A DNA stretch of 63,669 nucleotides, counting the filler, from Phoronis australis (lineage: Eukaryota > Animalia > Phoronida): assembly GCA_002633005.1 (NCBI GenBank). It is 7 parts of 7 records of this genome, joined end to end, with 100 filler letters (N's around TTAATTAATTAA, not from the genome) between each part and the next. Parts side by side here need not be neighbours in the genome. Positions count along the whole stretch, not along the records: positions 1 to 10,888 come from NMRA01000838.1; positions 10,989 to 16,492 come from NMRA01002323.1; 5 more parts are not named here. One strand, 5' to 3'. Made by a program: the position numbers and the translations under genes. Within the stretch, counting starts at the first letter, position 1. The number at the start of each line of letters is the position of its first letter. The notes below the pieces were generated by a model. That model saw only the letters and a program-made list of their open reading frames with translations. It was not told the origin of the DNA and searched no databases. This document shows positions 3,390 to 63,060 of the stretch, piece after piece.

Positions 3390-4635
3390 CGATGCATTTG
3401 GATGTTATGAAGCAGTTAGGGAGTGTTGTGGACATGAGTGAGGACAAGCATACAACAGATGGGGAAACACGTATCATGACGTGGGATACCACCTATGTAT
3501 CTCTCTTCAGTGAAATTTAAACGGACCGTCTGTATTCTCGCCAACACAGTTGTGAAGGGTGTCACCCTCAATTTAAAGGAACCATTTGTAATCCCGCCAG
3601 AATAGTTACGAAGGTTGATGTCCTCAATTTCCCCAATGTATCCCACCAGCCAATCCTATTTGAGCTTACGTTAACTTTAGATTAGCGAACCTCAATTCCT
3701 CATTCGGTGCATGACCTACAGTCATGTTCATCTCATCTTATATTCAACTTGTCGAAGCATGAGGTGACACCGACAGTTACTCCATTGGAACTTAAGGAAC
3801 CTGCAAAATCCTGTTGTCCATGAAAACTCAGGTTCAGGAGTAATGTTTGGTAAAACTGACCAAGGTAACGGAAACTTAAGGGAGTGTTGATACGCTGTCG
3901 GGAGATTTACTGAAGAAATTGACTTAATTATTTGACAAATCTTCTGCTCATTTAAATTCAGAATTTCAAGAAGTCTCAACTCAAGAACTTTTACTTGATT
4001 TTGAAGATTCATTTGCTGCTGATAATCTAGATTTAGGGAATTTCATGACAATACAACATAAAATACGGGGACAGCAAAACTTATAAGAATGGGTATGCGC
4101 TAGACGCCTGGTTGTTTTGTGACTGAGGAAGAACAATATTCAAAGATTTGTAAAATACAGGTGTACGTGTACCTTTAATGAGTGACAGGGCTGCCATTCC
4201 TGTATTAATACACAAACCTGACGGCACAGTGCATTACTGTATCTAATATACACAGCATTAACTAATGTGAACATGAAGGACGCATGGCCCTTACCTTCAA
4301 TTGTAAAATGCCAACATCTCCTACCCACTAATGTTTAGTTTAGCAACATATTTGGAGCAAATTCTGCTTATTGGTCTTTATTACAAAATATGGGCATCTT
4401 CATTTTATGCTTTTTGGGGTTGTGTGGTGACCCTAGTGCACAATCTGTTGAGCCATGAGTCTACGACTACGGGGATTAAACTGAAACAATTAGCATTTCT
4501 AAATGCTATTTAAATTTAGTGTTGGGCATCAGTTCTGAAAACCGCACTGACTGTTTGGAAGGCGTTGTAACTCGATTTCAGCAGTATGGCCTAAGATTAG
4601 ATTTAAAAAAGTGCTTATTCTAGAAAAAAGTCCCC
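3390..4635 (+). mobile_element. Highly degenerate Ty3/Gypsy pol (protease to RT remnants)
   Basis: Frameshifted RT motifs: KPDGTVHYCI*Y, LTNVNMKDAWPLPSI, SAYW, LEGVVTRFQQYGLRLDLKKCLF. Protease-like LDVMKQLGSVVDM near 3400. Confidence 0.65.
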
Positions 4636-6476
4636 CGCATATGGGCAGTATACGGATACACCTGGCAGCACAAGAGCTTTCGCTCAGCATTTTGGATTGC
4701 TGCAAAATCTAAAGGTTTGTTATCAGCATGATTGAAATGCCACCATACTCATAGTGAAATCTCTTTGTAAACCTTAGCGGTACCTAGTGTAGTGAATGCT
4801 GGAAATGCAAGAACACGGTCATAGACGGCCGAGTACGAGTAATGCATTTTCGTGCAGATGGTGATAAACAACTGAATTTACATCTGCAAACAGCTTAGTG
4901 TATAGTGACTTCTAGGGAGGTATTCTGTGTCAATGCTAGTTTCTGTAGTTCAGTGTTGTTGAGGTTTGTGAAGAGTTTTAGACTGTAAGAGGTTGATGGC
5001 CAAATTTCACGCATTGGACCAGTCTTCGCCGTGGTTGAGTGTAGGCGACAACACACCCTAATGTAGCGTGTATGCCAGAAGCTTTTTGGGAAATTATGCC
5101 TCACACTGACTAAACCATCAAAGGCTTTTGATGTCTTTAATCCCATCCAATTCAAACAAATACTCACACAATCAATGTTTCTTAAGGGTATCAAACAGTC
5201 CTTTGTTCAATAACTGAAATAAAAAACTGAGCCATTTCTGTTTTGATTGACTGAATCATTACTACAGCATGTAAATTTATAAATCACATCAAGGTAGTAA
5301 GACAGTCACAAATGCACTACACTGCTTAATCTGCACTAGTTCACTAGTGCTTGCGTACTTAAGCAAAGTGGCATCACTGAAGAACGAAGAAACATATTGG
5401 CACAAAGTCTTAATTACCAAAGTATTTGATCACTCAACTTTGATGTTTTGGTCAGAGTGAGGCATAATTTGCCTAGAAACTTCCGATGTATGGCGGCCCT
5501 ATGGCTATGTAATGATCATTAGATCTGTGCCTGCAACACTGATCCAGTTTAGACAGTCAGTATTATTGCCTAGCCTAGGTCGAGTAAAGACGGGGAACAG
5601 CAAACTACAGACACTCACCCCTGAACCTGGTTGATATTCAGCGCATTGCAATCAATTGTTGGCTGCCAAAGTTGGCAAGTTTTGTCGCAGTGTAACTTGC
5701 AACAACACACCAGTCACCCAGGTCAGGGATCGGCAAGACGAGACAAAATGCGGTGAAAGGGCAAGAAGTCTGATTTGGAGAACAAACCACATAATTAACA
5801 ATTGTTAACTCCACGGAAACACTATTAAACACCAAGTGCTAATCAATAACAAGCAACGTCGTCGTCGTCGTCACTTTCCAGACATCAGACAGTCATCACT
5901 CTTTTCAAAATCGAGAAGGGAAGAGGAAACGATTGCATAAATACAACTAGCCCGATAAGTATTCACACAACAGCGGAAGCACAATGAAGCTCGTAGAACA
6001 ACCTTTTCGTTTTAAGGAATATTTATACAAACCTTAATTAAAGACCATACGCAAAGTTTCAGGTTTCAGGTACACCCCCTATTTTTCACCGCTGTCCACC
6101 ATGTTTGACTTTAAGTCACGTGACTCCACCTGGCCACCACATATAAAGTTTGTAGAAAAAAACAAGAGAAGTTAATACAATTTAACTCTATGATGAAAAA
6201 CTTTAACAAAAATTATTATCACTAGAAAAAGTGTTTTTTTTAAAATATCTTATTTACATATTTTTCAGTACTAAAACTTCGATGGTCGGTGGTGTGTAAA
6301 TTTTCAGGGCCAAACTGGGACTTCCGTTTTAGGATTTTAGATTTTATCATAAATTTATAACTCTTGCACAGCATCACCTTGAAGCACATTTTGTGAGTTG
6401 TTTTGTGTTTTGCCAATAGTCTCTTTTGTCTGTCTTGTGTGGAATTCTTTGCCTGAGTCTGTTCTTGTTTATGCAG

Positions 6477-6647
6477 TGTAGTGAATGGCTCCTATTAAGG
6501 TTCTTTTCGGGCTACTCACCCTTGTTCATTCCTAGTTCTGTACACGTTATTAGACGCACGTCCTCTTGCCATGGAGGACAGCACACGAGAGAGAAAAGGT
6601 CCACACCAGCAGGCAGCTCCCCAGTCACGTGACAAAAAACTATATCC
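6477..6647 (-). mobile_element. LTR family A, partial copy
   Basis: Near-identical to 9853-10023, begins TGTAGTGAA, and stops exactly where LTR-B begins. Confidence 0.8.
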
Positions 6648-6916
6648 TGTTGTGAATGTTGGTTTGTGTGGTCTTGTCTATCGTGTTGTCTTGTGTGTTC
6701 GTGTTCGTCCGTGGGTTTCCGTCAGTGGCCGGATGTTGTAAGTTCTAGTTTTGTCACGTGACTGGGGAATCAAGAGCTCTCTGTTCGTGTGGCACTGCTG
6801 CACGCAGGACGTCTGCGTTTGTGGGTCTTCAACTCAAGCGTGTATTCAAGCTTTCATATGAGTAAAGGTAAGCTGCACGAGAACCTGTGTATCGAGTCAC
6901 AACATTTGGCGTAGTT
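6648..6916 (+). mobile_element. LTR family B: 5' LTR plus tRNA-Ser-type primer binding site
   Basis: 257-bp unit 6648-6904 bounded by the perfect inverted repeats TGTTGTGA...TCACAACA. It is followed by a 2-nt spacer and TGGCGTAGT (6907), complementary to the 3' end of tRNA-Ser. Confidence 0.75.
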
Positions 6917-9852
6917 GCTACGTGCAGTTTCTACCTTTACACCGAGTGGCGCGTAGTTCGAAATAANTTCAAGTACCTTCACTGCATAACGGTTTTCAGT
7001 TCTTGGACGTTTCGAAATATCTGCACGAACATTATATATGGCTCGATCCATGCTCATTTTGAATGGTTTACTTGAAACCCAGGGTAAAATGGAACTAACA
7101 ATGGTAGCTTAGACCACAGGCGTCCTCAGATCGTCCCCAATACACTATATATAATACTACAAGGTATGAGTGAGACTCCGGACTAGAAATTCCACGGGTG
7201 CTTCACTTCAGCCGCCCATAACAAACATAAAACTCAATAAATTTACATAAAACAGAAGTTCAACAAACCATGAAGAATTGTTCTTTCTCCCAATGCCATT
7301 TATGGTGTCCTGCTCCACCAAGTTCGCAAGAAATTCGCGGTCAAAACACAGAAATCGTCCCAAAAAGCTCGTCCGGGGCAACTCATTGGTCCCACGCGCA
7401 GGGTACGGAATTATCCAAGGAGTTGCGGATGAACGGCAATTTGCCTTGATGTATAGTGCGTATTCGGAACGATCAGCTGAGGACGCCTGCGGCTTAGACT
7501 GCCGGTACGTTTACTTGTGAGAGGGCGCTCCTCGCTCGTGTCACAACCGAACAGACGCCTCAGTCCGCCGGGCTTCAACAATACAACGCTAACACTATTG
7601 TTGACTGGCGTGTCGTTTTTATATGAAGTATGCATTTCAGTTCGTCCTTTCTGGAGTTAAATGGAAACCTTGTTTATGTTTTGAAGCCAAATAATGTCCT
7701 GTAGCGCTCGACAACTCTCAAAAAATTGGAAGAAGTACATTTTTGAAAACTCGAACTCTGCAAAACGGACGTAAGCTTTGGCGAATTTCACGCTTGTAGG
7801 AAAAGACCACCCACCAAGGACTATAATATTTAACCTGTAACTTGGGGAGTATAAATTTTTAATTGATTCCTGCCTTGTCCTTGGAGGATCGACGCCAATG
7901 ATGCATTAGAAGGTGTCGTGCACATACCGAGGATTGGTGGAAATCCGATCACGGATTTCTTAACCCCGTGGTCGGTTTGGCGATTACATAACCAGGTCTT
8001 CGGAATTTCCTCTTTTATCCTCTCCGTTTCATCATTTCTTGCAGTTAATTTTACAATTCAAAAAAAATTCTATCACATAAACCTATTTGTAGAACGATGG
8101 GTCACCTGGAAAATTTTCCTCGTCCATTTCAAGCCTCGATTCTCAAGACAAATGCGTTACGTCCTCTTAATAGGATATACGCTATTTCAATGAGATGGAA
8201 GGTTCAGCATTGCCTAAAATTACATTAGACCACATGTACGTATTAGCAAAGCAATCGACCAGTTGTAGGGCAAGACAAGAAAACGTGACAGAGCAAATTA
8301 CAGGGTCTGGTGTCCGCAGAAAACTTAATGGAGATTGCTGAGATACTGGTGAACAGATTCAAAGGCGACAGTTGACAGAACAGTGAGATAAAGTGTAATG
8401 ATAGTGGCCAACAGACAGAGGGACAGGGAACGATAAAAATGCAAATAAACATCATGATGAACTGTCTGCCCGCAAATACATATTCATCAATATGGGGAAA
8501 GGTCAATTGACAGGCTCCGACCGACATCCTGTTCAAATTGTGCGTGCCATGGATCCTGGATCCGCCAGTGCAATGCATGTAAATATTTTATAAACAAGTT
8601 ACTTGTCTAGTGGAGGTCGGAAAGGACATTCAGAAAAGAAAGTCTGCCATTCCCGTCGCTACGATGTATATTCGGAAAGTTTTTTAAAATGTTAAAAACG
8701 TAACTGGGGTTCAACCGAATCACGGTAAGCCTATGAATGCCGAAAAAATTTTGTGGTCACTGCAATGCTCGAAACAATTTGTTTCATTCAAGACTGGGTC
8801 TTGGTCATGGCAAATTAGCACCGTACGCGTATGGGATTTTGGAACCAGAACCTAGGCCACTCACGGTTTGTACGCCGGGGTTCCCCCAGTTCAATGAATG
8901 ATGGAATAACTTTTTCCAGTCTTACCGGAACATATCTGTGCCAAGTTGTTCTCACGGTTGCCACCACCATAGACTCAAGTGACCCTCCGCGTCTCGCCAA
9001 TATCCGATGATACGTTTTTAGTTGGAATGCCAATTTTCACGGGGCCGACGAGCCGCTTGTCCGGTGGTGTACACCGATGGAGTATGCTATGCTGATCAAG
9101 GCGAACTTTCATTTGACTGTTTTTCAGAAATTACCTATGAGGCAGACCGTGAATTAAAACATGTTTTGTTTCCTGCCTACACCTATAACCTTCTGGTGGG
9201 TTCCGTTTCGCTGGCGGCACAGTCGTACTGCATGACTCAGTTCTGCTACTGGGAACTTGACACAAATCACCGTTCGGTGCAATGCGCATCTACACTCGTG
9301 CTTTGCGCAAATTTTTACAGAAAAGATGTTGCCCCCCCCCTCTTGTGATATCCTAGATCCGCCACTGAGAAATTTTGACGAAGTCCTCCCGCATTCGCCC
9401 CTCAAAATGCAAAAGCCGGTGGCCACCAATCTCATTGGCAGCCACCGGGTACTCCGCCACTAGGTGCCGCTTTATCATACTCAAAATCAATCATGGCTGC
9501 CGTACTGAAGTGTTTACGGAAAATTGGAGTGTTCACAAAAACTGCTTCAAACACTATAAAAGTTTCCCGGTCGGTTGGCTCATTCTATCCTATCAATGAT
9601 GACATGCATGGCTTAACAGATCATCACAAGCAGGTTTGTTTTTTTACTCTGCTTAGTTAAAATATCTGAAAGCAAGCCCTCTGGCCTCTGGTTATTAGCC
9701 TTAGGCCCTTAGGGTAAGGGCCTTAGGGCTTAGGCTTGGATCAACTTCAGAAGTTCAGTCTTCAGACTAGTCTTCAACTTAAGTTCAAGCCCAAGGAGGC
9801 TAGTCGTAGTTGATCTGCCCTGAGCGCTTTCCTGTATGGCAGTTCTCATAAG

Positions 9853-10101
9853 TGTAGTGAATGGCTGCTATTAAGGTTCTTTTCGGGCTACTCACCCTTG
9901 CTCATTCCTAGTTCTGTACACGTTATTAGACGCACGTCCTCTTGCCATGGAGGACAACACACGAGAGACAGCAGGTCCACACCAGCAGGCAGCTCCCCAG
10001 TCACGTGACAAAAAACTATATCCGGACGACCATAACACTCATACGAACAAGGACGGACGACATTGAAACTGGACAACGAATACCTACCTAGGTTCACGAC
10101 A
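9853..10101 (-). mobile_element. LTR family A, complete 3' LTR
   Basis: 249 bp with TG...CA ends and 8/9 inverted termini (minus strand TGTCGTGAA...TTCACTACA). A polypurine tract abuts it, and a second copy lies at 6477. Confidence 0.85.
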
Positions 10102-10115
10102 CTCCTCCCCTCCCT
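10102..10115 (-). other. Polypurine tract of the LTR retrotransposon
   Basis: Minus-strand AGGGAGGGGAGGAG directly precedes the TG start of the LTR. Confidence 0.8.
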
Positions 10116-10710
10116 AAAAATGACTAAATGAACTGATTGGAAAAAAAAACAATGAGGAGTGAATGTGAACAGGAACTAAAAAAAACTATAACTATTCCCC
10201 CCCCTACCTACTAATTAGTGGACAAACAGCCTCAATCATAAGGCATGTTAGTATAACAATGGCGCCCGGTAACTAAACTATATATATAAAAAAAAAAACG
10301 TGACTGGAGATCCTAACTTACGACTAAAAATGTGTGGAAAAATGCCAACTTTTGGCAAAAAGTCAAAACAACGAAAAAAAAACAAAAATGAGCTAATAAT
10401 AAATAAAAAAAACTGAATGTTGAGTACCCTAATTGTCAACTTAATTAACAAAGAAACAGACAATCAACGTAACACAACAGATAACAATAAGGTAGCATAG
10501 TTTGGTGAAACTGAACAGACCTACCCGCGAACGAGTATCCCTGGATCAGCCTCTTTTATTTTTTGTTTTGAGGTGACTGAAAAAAAATAAATTTTTAAAA
10601 GGAATGTTAAAGGTAATAACTGGTAGCTTTTTGCTACTTCAAGTGAAATTTAACTATAACGCTATGCTACTACACAAAACATAACAACGCTGGATTCACC
10701 GTCGATGAGC

Positions 10711-10887
10711 CTACAGCGTATACAATCGGCGGGCGTTCCTAGCGGTCTGTCGAAGGACTTGTGCAACAGTCGTGCCGCGATGTTTGGCCACCACCTCAGC
10801 CACCTCTCCAACGAACTGAGGATAATTTGGGCGTTCCTTTAATGACAAGTGAGGAGCGTCGGTCTCTAAAAGGAGACGATCTTCAGG
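10711..10887 (-). CDS. TatD-family deoxyribonuclease, C-terminal 58 aa (5' part lost in gap), apparently retrotransposon-borne
   Basis: Manual translation PEDRLLLETDAPHLSLKERPNYPQFVGEVAEVVAKHRGTTVAQVLRQTARNARRLYTL* carries the TatD signature P.DRLLLETDAP and the terminal T..NARRL helix. Confidence 0.8.
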   Translation of the reverse strand, partial: PEDRLLLETDAPHLSLKERPNYPQFVGEVAEVVAKHRGTTVAQVLRQTARNARRLYTL

Positions 10888-11339
10888 TNNNNNNNNNNNN
10901 NNNNNNNNNNNNNNNNNNNNNNNNNNNNNNNNTTAATTAATTAANNNNNNNNNNNNNNNNNNNNNNNNNNNNNNNNNNNNNNNNNNNNTTTATCATGCTA
11001 TAATGTTCATAGTAACGGTACACGTTAGGTCAGTTTCGGCTTAAGTAAAGTCGTCCGAGCGTTAGCATCTCTAGCATAGGATTTGAAGATTGTTTGTAGA
11101 TTTTGTTACATACATGTATTATAAAAGTCACTGCATAAGACAGTCAAGTTAATCTAATCATTATCAGAAAATGAAATGTGGCGATATTCTTTTTTTCTTT
11201 TATAACGCTTTTTTAAATTGCATTATCGAATCAAGTACAGTAGCTTCAAAAATGTAGTTGTTTTTTCTTTTGGAGGTTATCTTCGGTTTTTATAAAATTC
11301 TCCATCTCCCAATTTAATTTTAAATCTCCTCCTTTCAGA

Positions 11340-11342
<3 letters not shown>

Positions 11343-11380
<38 letters not shown>

Positions 11381-13364: not shown

Positions 13365-14361
13365 TTAAATTCGTCTGCCCTTAACGGGAGGAGGAGGGGT
13401 AGAAGCAGGCGTGGGGGACTGCCTGCGACAAGACTTAGCCGGGTGTTTTCCATTGCAAGAGGAGCAGACATGGAGGTAAGGACACTGAGTGGGGGGCTTA
13501 GGGCAGGTGTGGGAGTTGTAGGACCAGCAGTAGCCAGGGGTGCGATGAGGAGAGGTGGTTTGGGGGAGGGGGATTGGTTCGACCTGAGGGAGGTCTGAAC
13601 CCACAGCTCCTGATTGATGGAGTGCCAAGGGTCGTGGGAAGGGAACCGGGTGTGGAGATAAAGGTAAGGATGGTGTGGGCGTATTTGCAAANNNNNNNNN
13701 NNNNNNNNNNNNNNNNNNNNNNNNNNNNNNNNNNNNNNNNNNNNNNNNNNNNNNNNNNNNNNNNNNNNNNNNNNNNNNNNNNNNNNNNNNNNNNNNNNNN
13801 NNNNNNNNNNNNNNNNNNNNNNNNNNNNNNNNNNNNNNNNNNNNNNNNNNNNNNNNNNNNNNNNNNNNNNNNNNNNNNNNNNNNNNNNNNNNNNNNNNNN
13901 NNNNNNNNNNNNNNNNNNNNNNNNNNNNNNNNNNNNNNNNNNNNNNNNNNNNNNNNNNNNNNNNNNNNNNNNNNNNNNNNNNNNNNNNNNNNNNNNNNNN
14001 NNNNNNNNNNNNNNNNNNNNNNNNNNNNNNNNNNNNNNNNNNNNNNNNNNNNNNNNNNNNNNNNNNNNNNNNNNNNNNNNNNNNNNNNNNNNNNNNNNNN
14101 NNNNNNNNNNNNNNNNNNNGGTGGAGGCTGCACAGTGATGACCGACGGAGCAGCTGGCAGGGGTGCTGAGACCGACGACGGCACGGAGAGGAGAGATGGA
14201 TCCTGGCGAAGTTGCTGGATGACAGACGAGACTACGGTGGAAACGTCCGGCGCTGGTGCAGAGGGCGGACTCGAGGACGTCGCAGACGATGTAGAGGAGC
14301 GAGCGCGTGCCGGTGAAGGGCGAGAAGACGGTGAGTTGGATGGACGAGCTGAATGACGAGG
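13365..14361 (-). mobile_element. DIRS/Ngaro-like (tyrosine-recombinase retrotransposon) gag, frameshifted and gapped
   Basis: Ser/Pro-rich N-terminus and WHSINQELW motif. In a shifted frame, CWSYNSHTCPKPPTQCPYLHVCSSCNGKHPAKSC, the CCCH+CCHC double knuckle typical of Ngaro/DIRS gag. Confidence 0.65.
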
Positions 14362-15354
14362 CATCTGAAAAAGAAAAAGGGAGCGGCAGAGAGACTGATG
14401 CAAAAAAGGGGAACGACCGCCCCGGGAAGGGGTGGCCGAACCCTAGAGGTGGAACACAATCGAGGGAAACGTGGGATGTATATGGGAGAAAGATGGCTCT
14501 ATATATAAACACATGGATGGAACCTTAACTCAAAACACGAGAAAATATGAGCATCTTACTTATCAGTCTTGTGAAAATAGAGTTGAAATCATGTATACAA
14601 GTAGAAAAAAAAGATTACGCCTCTGAATGAAATTCATGTTCCTTGCTACGTAACACCTAAAAATTAGTTACAAATAACAATAAATTAACACCAAACAGAT
14701 GGTCTCACAACTAAATTCTAAATTTGAGCATGGTTGTCTATGGTTGGTATGAACATAACAACTGATTGCGAACATAAAATGCCAGAAAAAAAACAACACT
14801 AACATAACCCTGTTGTTTCTGTTAAGGATTTTTGTTTTTCACTCATGCAGCAGCTTTCGAAGCTGTTTTCTCTGTATCTGCAAAGAAGCATGTGACCAAC
14901 TACACAGGAAGTTAACTCATTTGCTTTTTAAACACATTATAGCAGATAACAGTACAGGTCACTCGAACGAAACTGTCAACACTACAGAACTGAATAACAA
15001 GAGCAACGCAGAGCGTTCAAATGCACCCACGAATGTGCCGCAAACAATGTGCCTCTAGGGATGTTTATTTGTATCATAAAATGGCCAGTAGGTGGCGCAA
15101 AATATGTCGAATCCATCCGAAAACGGGAACATACCATCGTTTTTAATAGAAAGCTATTTACTAAATTTCACAAAAATCCATAAAGTACACACCTGAAGGG
15201 CAATCAACAACGTACAGTTAACATAGGTTTCCCAGTTGCATGACTTTCGTGATCTAATCGTTGTACCAGCTAGCTACAGCTGTTTAAAATCCTAAAATGC
15301 ATGCAGTCATCTAGCATTAGGCCTGTCCTGCAAATTAATGCATCGAGCATGATA

Positions 15355-17261: not shown

Positions 17262-32343
<15,082 letters not shown>

Positions 32344-33188: not shown

Positions 33189-33969
33189 CTAAATGACGAA
33201 TTCGTCTATACATAAGTACAGTGACATTTTTACTTGGCGAAATAAATTTCGATTCAGTCCACTGAACTTGCCTTTGAATGGAATCATCATCTCATCAACA
33301 GAATTGAATTCCTCAGGCGTAACTTTTAGGCAGTTGGTACGAAACATATCTAGCCATGGTTTCAGTTTCCACAATTTGAACTGCGCCTTTTCTTCCTCTG
33401 TCACTTGCATGTTGTTCGTGAAATGCAGAAGAGTGGGTATTTGCAGAAACCTGTTGCGACTCATAACAGCAGCCACAGGCCCATAACGCGTTTTGTTTTC
33501 CCAGTAAGTCCGATTACCTGGCATCTTAACAATACCCATTCTAAGGTACATCGCCATCACTTGCTCCACCTCATTGAGGCTGATGTTTGCATCAGTGCCA
33601 TTTTTCTGCATAGCATAGATGTTGGAGTTCTCAGTTAAAAGATCAATCATTTCTGCTGTTATAAACTGAGTAAACTACTGGTGTGCAGTTTTCAACTCTC
33701 CATCGGGAGGTGTTGTTATAGCTTCACCTTCAAACAGAATATCAGGGGGCTGAAACTGACGGTTACGCCACTTGTAAGACTCTTTTTTTCTTCACCGGCT
33801 TGGGAACAAGACGAAATAGTGGTTCATCATCACTGGAGTCATCCTGATCTCCACTCTGCCCTAAGTCTGTGGTGTTATTGCCATCTTTACTGGTTGAAGG
33901 CTGAACTGCATCATCACTCTCACTGTCATAACTGTTGTCTTCGGGTAGAAACAGACACTCAGTAATCAT
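33189..33969 (-). mobile_element. piggyBac transposase fragment (PGBD3-like DDE_Tnp_1_7), truncated and frameshifted
   Basis: Acidic N-terminus (DSESDD...SSDDEPL), then MSRNRF...LHF.NN...KLWKLKPWLD...SVDEMMIPFKG. Homology ends just after the first catalytic Asp. Confidence 0.88.
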
Positions 33970-61749: not shown

Positions 61750-61923
61750 ATACTACATTTCCTCAGAGTTTTAAAATTCAAAAATATGAAAATCATGGGT
61801 GATAGTCAGGTTGAACACACGCGNNNNNNNNNNNNNNNNNNNNNNNNNNNNNNNNNNNNNNNNNNNNTTAATTAATTAANNNNNNNNNNNNNNNNNNNNN
61901 NNNNNNNNNNNNNNNNNNNNNNN

Positions 61924-63060
61924 TGTTGTTGAACTTCTTCAGCCTTTCTCTGCCACCACTGATCTTGCATTTCCCTCAGTTCCAGCTGCGCTTTACTCTC
62001 TAAGTGTTTGAACCTGTCCTTCTTTGAGACGGACGATGGATCATTCTGCCACTCTACATAGGCTTTCTTCTTGGCATCAAGGGTTGTAGAAATGGCTTCA
62101 TCGTTTTCATCAAACCAGTCTTGGTGCACCCGGGGTTTCGGTCCCAGTACCATTTCTGCGGTTTCTGTCACGGCCTCCTTGAACTGCGCCCATTTCTCAG
62201 TGCTAGTTCCAACAAGTGGTGTGTTGCCTGATAGCGTGTCGTCCTGGGAATCCTGAAACCGATGAAGGTGTAGAGGATGCTTTAACCTGGCTGTGTTGAA
62301 GGATGCCCTGATAATTTTCTGCCTGTTGCGCTGCGGGGGAACGATGTGCACGTTGAAAAGAGATCGTACTAGCCTGTGATCTGTCCAGCATTCAGCGCCC
62401 CTCATTACCTGGGTAATCTTGACATCCTGCATATCCCGCTGGCGAACGATGACAAAGTCAATCATGTGCCAATGTTTGGATCTGGGATGCATCCAGGTGG
62501 TCTTGTACTTGGCTGCTAGTCTGAACATAGTGTTGGTGATACACAGGTTGTGCTCAGCGCATTTACTTAGTAGGAGCATGCCGTTGCTCCTGAAATTGCC
62601 TACTCCGTGCCGTCCCAACACACCTTCCCAACTACTGCTGTCATTTCCGACTCGGGCATTGAAGTCTCCGAGGATTACAAGCTTGTCATTCGGGGAGTTG
62701 TCCTGATGATCTGGTCAAGGTCTTCGTAGAAGCGTTCCTTTGCTTCTTCGGGACTAATGAGCGTTGGGGCGTAGGCGATGATGATGGTGATGTGGCGAGA
62801 CTTGTTCAGTGGGAAGCGAAGCTTCATTAGGCGCTCATTGACACTAGTGGGAAGAGTAGGGATGTCCTTCAACATGGTGGACTTGATAGCAATTCCTACT
62901 CCATAAATTCTGTCTTCAGCCTCTGGTTTCCCTTTCCAGAAGAATCTGTAGCCTCCCTTCTCCTCTTTCAGTGACCCTTCATCAGCGAGTCTCGTCTCGC
63001 TGAGAGCTGCAATGTCTACGCTGGAGTTCTCTAGCTACAAGTGCAGTCCTTCTTTCTGGT
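61924..63060 (-). mobile_element. RTE-clade LINE (BovB-like), AP-endonuclease region, frameshifted; RT lost in gap
   Basis: IAALSETRLADEG...GVGIAIK...AYAPTL...LGDFNARVG...TTWMHPRSKHWHMIDFVIVR...CWTDHRLV...QDWFDEND. Confidence 0.92.

Follow-up and report, generated by a model that had tools for sequence, protein, structure and literature searches.

A TatD nuclease tail at the 3' end of a multicopy LTR retrotransposon in Phoronis australis, probably the third gene of a Ty3/gypsy lineage

The window, that is, the whole stretch of 63,669 nucleotides of Phoronis australis DNA analysed here, carries on its minus strand the end of a nuclease gene followed by a spacer, a polypurine tract and a long terminal repeat. 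The features of this copy, with a second LTR copy and the adjoining assembly gap, are listed below with the basis of each call in brackets.

10711..10887, minus strand: final 58 codons of a TatD nuclease domain with their stop codon, the putative end of an ORF3 (frame, Pfam, profile test).
10119..10710, minus strand: T-rich 3' spacer of 592 nt, multicopy and transcribed (read contigs, base composition).
10102..10115, minus strand: polypurine tract (PPT) adjoining the LTR (sequence).
9853..10101, minus strand: 3' LTR of 249 bp with TG..CA ends (sequence; loose contig ends at 10101).
10889..10988, no strand: artificial scaffold linker, which hides the rest of the copy and more than 1.2 kb of other DNA (sequence, contig).
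6477..6647, minus strand: second LTR copy, 5'-truncated, 96.5% identical (sequence comparison).

The minus strand reads 58 stop-free codons from 10887 to 10714, and a TAG at 10713-10711 closes the frame, which is cut on its upstream side by the assembly gap. The frame corresponds to positions 194-252 of 253 in Pfam PF01026 (TatD_DNase) with an E value of 3.5e-12, and its 46.7 bits lie above the curated cut-off of 27. The catalytic E-x-D motif of the C-terminus is present as ETD and corresponds by motif to E705/D707 of TATDN2. Downstream of the stop, the spacer (10710-10119) has a T content of 43%. A T-run and then the purine tract AGGGAGGGGAGGAG at 10115-10102 directly adjoin the LTR, which opens with TGTCGTGAA and closes with TTCACTACA at 10101-9853, an imperfect terminal inverted repeat. 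Three contigs have loose ends at 10101 and so mark the LTR boundary. The original prediction had drawn this same order (TatD C-terminus, about 600 nt of T-rich spacer, PPT, TG..CA LTR) and had proposed the Pfam comparison of the 58-residue peptide; frame, Pfam match and sequence agree with it. The window thus has both the TG..CA ends and a PPT lying directly internal to the 3' LTR, and a primer-binding TGG sought after the LTR at 10101-9853 was absent. The second LTR copy reads from 6647 to 6477. No gag or pol was found linked to the LTR within the window, where the sole pol match is a decayed reverse transcriptase (RT) on the other strand; the assembly gap hides the upstream part of the copy, where gag, pol, the 5' LTR and a target-site duplication would not be visible.

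Other features of the window were recorded on the way. The decayed RT is a gypsy-like relic at 3886-4641 on the plus strand, with many stops and about 27% identity to the RT of the relatives described below. A related LTR of 257 bp (TGTTGTGAA..ACAACA) lies on the plus strand at 6648-6904, starting exactly at the break of the second LTR copy and pointing the other way. After it comes TT-TGGCGTAGT, which resembles the start of a primer site and which we take to be of the tRNA-Ser type, and no gag or pol match was found after it in the window. With the LTR of the TatD element it has in common a 52-nt core (75%) around a GTCACGTGAC palindrome. Exons of an AFG3L2/paraplegin-type FtsH protease gene (FtsH_ext, AAA_lid_3, Peptidase_M41) were found on the plus strand at 21654-31482, and on the minus strand a piggyBac-type transposase fragment (DDE_Tnp_1_7) at 33189-33674 and a LINE endonuclease region at 61872-63034. 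A proline-rich minus-strand frame with a Cys/His cluster at 13365-14442, which spans a 428-N gap, gave the impression of a DIRS-type gag end; two pieces of it scanned against Pfam had no match.

The "gap" at 10889-10988 is an artificial linker of 44 N, a 12-base stop linker and 44 N, and the window contains this 44-12-44 geometry at six places (the linker letters were read at two). The DNA beyond the linker looks single-copy, with two contigs on 10989-11345 (357 bases) at a depth of 45. From beyond the linker one contig (1621 nt) reaches 1259 letters into the gap, and the real gap must therefore exceed 1.2 kb. This contig differs from another of 1058 nt in DNA run X1, which tracks the flank to 9853 and then departs into 570 letters of other sequence, the pattern expected of an allele that lacks the insertion.

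Copy number was judged from contigs of run X1; the sequencing runs were chosen by species label, X1 to X3 represent one sample, and X1 may be the source of the assembly. Ninety-four contigs fell on 9500-10888 compared with two on 10989-11345. By identity, 20 of them were at 99% or more, 30 at 95-99%, 26 at 90-95% and 18 below 90%. Summed depth, which is not a copy number, was about 40 on the flank and 155-500 across the TatD bins. One variant inside the TatD frame was common to 15 separate contigs. Divergent contigs join LTR, PPT and spacer (records 3, 4 and 10) and spacer and TatD (records 7 and 15). Four variants are listed in the TatD frame, two of them synonymous, which is too few for use. 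Far from being a single-copy host exon, the TatD tail occurs in dispersed multiple copies, as expected of a Ty3/gypsy element and unlike the single copy of a host TATDN1, TATDN2 or TATDN3 gene.

About a fifth of each of two RNA runs (X6 and X7) was examined. Together they covered every bin from 10888 to about 9876, that is, TatD, spacer and most of the LTR, and depth dropped near the 3' end of the LTR. First mates lay mostly on the plus strand, which under the usual stranded protocol places the RNA in the TatD sense. This reading of strandedness is supported by reads of the opposite orientation, which end at a plus-strand CAG|GT donor at 9633. The reads and the window copy disagree at many shared sites, which places the origin of the reads in other copies or alleles; what the reads record is expression of the family, not of the locus. 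No splice joint in the TatD tail is listed for the RNA reads mapped to the window. The reads that end at the 9633 donor define an exon of a host transcript at 9500-9633 on the plus strand; the exon following it was not found in the window. The window copy looks as if it stands antisense in a host intron. Four and eight reads in the two runs showed a joint from 10576 to 9934, back 643 bases from spacer to LTR; its short side has only 21 letters, and it perhaps reflects another copy or an artefact.

To place the fragment among TatD proteins, a full phmmer scan was run, which gave 258 protein matches, 150 of them listed. Many top matches were long proteins with a C-terminal TatD. Pfam, run on 25 of these, found TatD in 24 and RT or integrase in none. 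Among ten proteins looked up, members from Mya, Haliotis and Gigantopelta belonged to clusters of 13, 5 and 4; the Mya arenaria cluster had 13 members at 90% identity or more, seven of them 824 aa long, on several large contigs. One intact 824-aa Mya arenaria relative is XP_052761473.1. A second search added Ruditapes, Crassostrea, Dreissena, Pinctada, Mercenaria, Argopecten, Diadema, Strongylocentrotus and Lytechinus.

The 150 listed matches were then sorted by motifs upstream of the TatD tail into 49 element-type and 38 bacterial-type proteins, and 63 unclassed ones were dropped. In a balanced five-fold profile test the window fragment scored +16.5 to +21.2 bits for the element-type set, and held-out tails scored above zero in 48 of 49 element-type and 1 of 38 bacterial-type cases. 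The fragment has a G-E-V signature found in 31/49 element-type and 1/38 bacterial-type tails, and it is missing the R-G..N-x-P loop found in 0/49 and 29/38, respectively. A first profile test had leaned bacterial (69.7 vs 63.2 bits), with a bias in that its bacterial set was fetched largely by the fragment itself. In the FastTree tree the fragment is the neighbour of the element clade, at a weakly supported node (64). By the balanced profile test the window fragment clearly groups with the animal element-type TatD. Two scans of viral contigs gave 11 loci at 24-29% identity.

A host TATDN exon, a retrocopy or a bacterial contaminant might adjoin a solo LTR by chance. The highest identity of the fragment within the tree set (59%) was indeed to a bacterial-type protein, and a homolog search with the 58 residues gave only ordinary TatD proteins at about 50% identity. 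A search aimed at animal TATDN2 returned mostly protist and also fungal and bacterial-type proteins, none of them named as an animal TATDN2. Against this explanation stand the abundance of divergent contigs that cover the TatD tail, the contigs that link it to spacer, PPT and LTR, the G-E-V signature without the R-G..N-x-P loop, and the PPT itself, which a solo LTR does not have. Multicopy contigs and the profile test largely refute the chance arrangement, and we consider it very improbable; a single-copy TatD splicing to host exons, which would have spoken against the original prediction, was not what the contigs and RNA reads revealed.

The element-type group has a DSHFHLDR motif, and this was used to fetch 70 further loci, 53 from metagenomes and 17 from genome bins, which stem from a small number of data sets and do not count as independent. 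We infer that these loci are host animal DNA, the bins being titled as bacteria. A Ty3/gypsy pol preceded TatD in the same strand orientation at 37 of the 70 loci and at 24 of the 26 with at least 3 kb of upstream sequence; none lay on the opposite strand. Gag, pol and ORF3 stand in line on nine contigs and are circularly permuted on two more. By Pfam the pol order is protease, RT, RNase H and integrase, with a C-terminal PHD finger in 14/14 integrase-bearing frames scanned and the RT motif FLDD in 10/10. Gag comprises HhH, a PNMA-like capsid and CCHC. The PHD finger ends pol in L015, L040, L041, L067, L069, L071, L072, L077 and L080, and gag starts with the helix-hairpin-helix in L040, L041, L069, L071 and L072; it is possible that the two form a chromatin-reading targeting module replacing a chromodomain. 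Bins titled Sedimenticola and Ca. Thiodiazotropha hold retrotransposon contigs (L065-L081), and the "TatD family hydrolase" genes of these bins are likely host contamination.

In all 15 loci examined for the junction, a stop codon closes pol, and 24-905 nt further on ORF3 begins at an ATG of its own. ORF3 is 608-1093 aa long, counted from the first ATG. The claim that TatD lies inside the element is borne out by the contigs that bridge LTR, PPT, spacer and TatD and by the pol upstream in the relatives. Of the two placements that had been put forward, a separate extra ORF after pol is supported by the relatives, and fusion of TatD to the end of pol was rejected within those 15 loci.

The spacer from ORF3 to LTR measures 94-1351 nt in the relatives. 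A G-rich tract followed by TG was found after ORF3 in 18 of the 30 loci with enough downstream DNA and in 0/30 on the other strand, by a pattern that was tuned after viewing the loci and would not match the TGTCG start in the window. A first PPT pattern had matched 4/20 relatives, one of them a false A-run. The GGGGAGGAG|TGT junction, the same as in the window, is present in L013, L067, L069, L071 and L073. An acceptor-like site lies within 15 nt before the first ATG in 9/20 ORF3s, compared with 252/3243 (7.8%) of other ATGs, and these sites suggest a spliced ORF3 message in the manner of env. RT-RNase H and TatD identities correlate (Spearman 0.60) over 45 non-independent pairs; this would fit co-inheritance and is not a proper test of it.

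The architecture of the relatives bears on whether the window family could be a non-autonomous derivative that kept ORF3 and LTRs and lost gag-pol. That would agree with the window, in which nothing of gag or pol is linked to the LTR and only the decayed RT on the other strand was matched, and 3 of the 32 relatives with at least 2.5 kb upstream have no pol. The other 29 do have it, and the upstream part of the window copy is the part hidden by the gap. We regard such a derivative as quite unlikely.

The TatD domain was intact in one frame at 35 of the 70 loci. All six metal ligands (H-x-H, E, H, H, D) were kept in 35/35 intact domains, three of the six having belonged to the pattern that selected these domains and the other three not; in the window copy the assembly gap covers the HxH, E, H, H part of the domain. 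The dN/dS ratios in the four closest pairs were 0.13, 0.41, 0.14 and 0.30; in farther pairs silent sites were mostly saturated, and protein identity was 54-66%. Judged from these alignments, ORF3 TatD is under purifying selection with an intact active site, in elements 34-58% identical in TatD. The checks of dN/dS and catalytic residues that had been suggested for the element were thus answered favourably, in relatives.

ORF3 consists of a long region rich in disorder-prone sequence, a Cys2His2 and helical domain of about 140 aa, and the C-terminal TatD barrel. The TatD model of one relative (P0222) has a pLDDT of 92.9 and matches the structures of YcfH, TatD and TATDN3. The best PDB sequence match of ORF3 TatD is YcfH, and its scores against TIGR00010, 105 and 128 bits, lie far below the cut-off of 206. 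No J-domain was found by Pfam in ORF3-type relatives. The domain of about 140 aa upstream of TatD has conserved C, C, H and H and a P-x-N-S..H-W-R motif, and its model folds confidently (pLDDT 95.5). No Pfam family was common to more than one of 39 members, and Foldseek gave no match at E 0.001, the best VIA Z was 3.3 and no Atlas match lay above 0.82, null results that do not make the fold new. No transmembrane-like stretch was found in 18/18 ORF3s (peak 19-residue hydropathy 0.92-1.72). Basic motifs before the zinc finger occurred in 12/18, barely above the 8.1 of shuffled sequences, too slight an excess to point to nuclear import. A further conserved N-terminal block is common to P0088, P0103, P0137 and P0149, two of which have CCHC knuckles.

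We conclude, with a probability of about 0.85 that covers the identity of the element and not the substrate of the nuclease, that TatD tail, spacer, PPT and LTR together form the 3' end of an LTR retrotransposon that is transcribed and present in many copies and that probably belongs to a Ty3/gypsy lineage with TatD as third gene and a likely accessory nuclease.

What the nuclease might do can be considered from TatD proteins already studied. According to PMC10085689, TatD proteins combine 3'-5' exonuclease with AP-endonuclease activity, and the substrates of E. coli TatD include ssDNA and RNA. PMC10711561 describes TATDN2 as degrading R-loop RNA, with binding that requires its long disordered N-terminus, and as having little activity on plain RNA-DNA duplexes. 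Since TATDN2 is weak on plain hybrids, a role of ORF3 in RT intermediates is disfavoured, if ORF3 behaves alike. Fish primordial germ cells need TATDN2, according to PMC12709183.

ORF3 would be made from its own, probably spliced, message like env and so would not be tied to Pol stoichiometry. Its TatD, predicted by homology to be a metal-dependent 3'-5' exonuclease with AP-endonuclease or R-loop RNase activity, might act in the nucleus and take away RNA stuck in R-loops or hybrids together with single-stranded cDNA by-products. By clearing the nucleic acids of the element itself, it could let copies go on transcribing and attract less sensing or damage response from the host. Our tentative reading, at somewhat less than even odds, is an accessory nuclease that clears R-loops and single-stranded by-products of the element itself.

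The same enzyme in the same element could instead be a tool of counter-defence or competition, directed at host small RNAs, their precursors or the cDNA of rival retroelements. A separate ORF in an accessory slot, likely with its own message, would suit such a tool, as would the action of E. coli TatD on ssDNA and RNA described in PMC10085689, and PMC5408684 raises a silencing role for the rotifer DEDDy ORF3. The Cys/His domain, on the other side, matched nothing that assigns it a function. Mature piRNAs bear a 3' methyl group, which hinders 3' exonucleases and also speaks against this use. We think it a rather unlikely role. Clearance of the element's own by-products is favoured over attack on small RNAs or rival elements because ORF3 has a TATDN2-like layout, is unfused to Pol and is without env features; the remaining weight falls on other roles.

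A broader scenario is, taken as a whole, less likely than not. An old mollusc-echinoderm Ty3/gypsy clade may have captured a TATDN2-like nuclease a single time and joined it to a zinc-binding domain without a match among solved folds. Made from a spliced message, the product would serve in counter-defence, as an enzyme dedicated to destroying the R-loops or nucleic-acid signals that let the germline recognise and silence the element. If so, many genes annotated as "TATDN2/YcfH-like" in molluscs and echinoderms would be retrotransposon genes.

The fragment in the window is small, and the lineage to which it points is broad and intact. Multicopy gene models named "TatD/TATDN2/YcfH-like" or "uncharacterized" in clams, abalones, oysters and sea urchins are likely retrotransposon DNA, and TatD genes in symbiont genome bins are likely host retrotransposon DNA. 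With an intact active site, function is testable with a soluble domain.

Enzymatic, non-env ORF3s are already known, and we did not find TatD described as ORF3 cargo. No TatD-ORF3 retrotransposon was found by titles and abstract starts; Repbase, Dfam, GyDB and subscription journals lie outside this scope and may hold such elements. The word "TatD" occurs zero times in the main text of PMC5408684, PMC6338049, PMC13524379, PMC12440569, PMC6238403, PMC10294476 and PMC8556966, and zero times in the supplements of PMC6238403 (five files, one scanned file unreadable) and PMC13524379 (seven files). In PMC6962438, TATDN2 is named only in a figure legend.

Three known systems are closest. Class II (HxH) TatD proteins (E. 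coli YcfH, human TATDN3, TATDN2) have in common with the relatives the barrel fold, HxH and the E/H/H/D ligands, and TATDN2 also the long N-terminal extension; unlike them, ORF3 is multicopy, element-borne, in one open frame and joined to an extra conserved domain. Errantiviruses, Ty3/gypsy elements with env as ORF3 (PMC13524379), likewise place a third ORF behind pol, preceded by acceptor-like sites, whereas the TatD ORF3 has no membrane anchor (18/18) and is an enzyme, not a fusogen. The LTR retrotransposons Juno and Vesta of bdelloid rotifers (PMC5408684) have a DEDDy 3'-5' exonuclease or a GDSL esterase as ORF3, and their DEDDy ORF3 is the closest parallel in print. The likeness lies in a non-envelope enzyme as ORF3 after pol, with catalytic residues kept and activity undemonstrated in both, and the DEDDy and TatD cargos both belong to 3'-5' exonuclease families. 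The differences are that TatD is by profile and fold a TIM-barrel metallohydrolase without the DEDDy domain, that a Cys2His2/helical domain and a long N-terminal region form one protein with it, behind a pol ending in a PHD finger, and that its named carriers are molluscs and sea urchins. With TatD, the cargo that LTR retrotransposons keep in the env slot comes to include two unrelated families of 3'-5' nucleases, a hint that selection for an enzyme of this kind has acted more than once.
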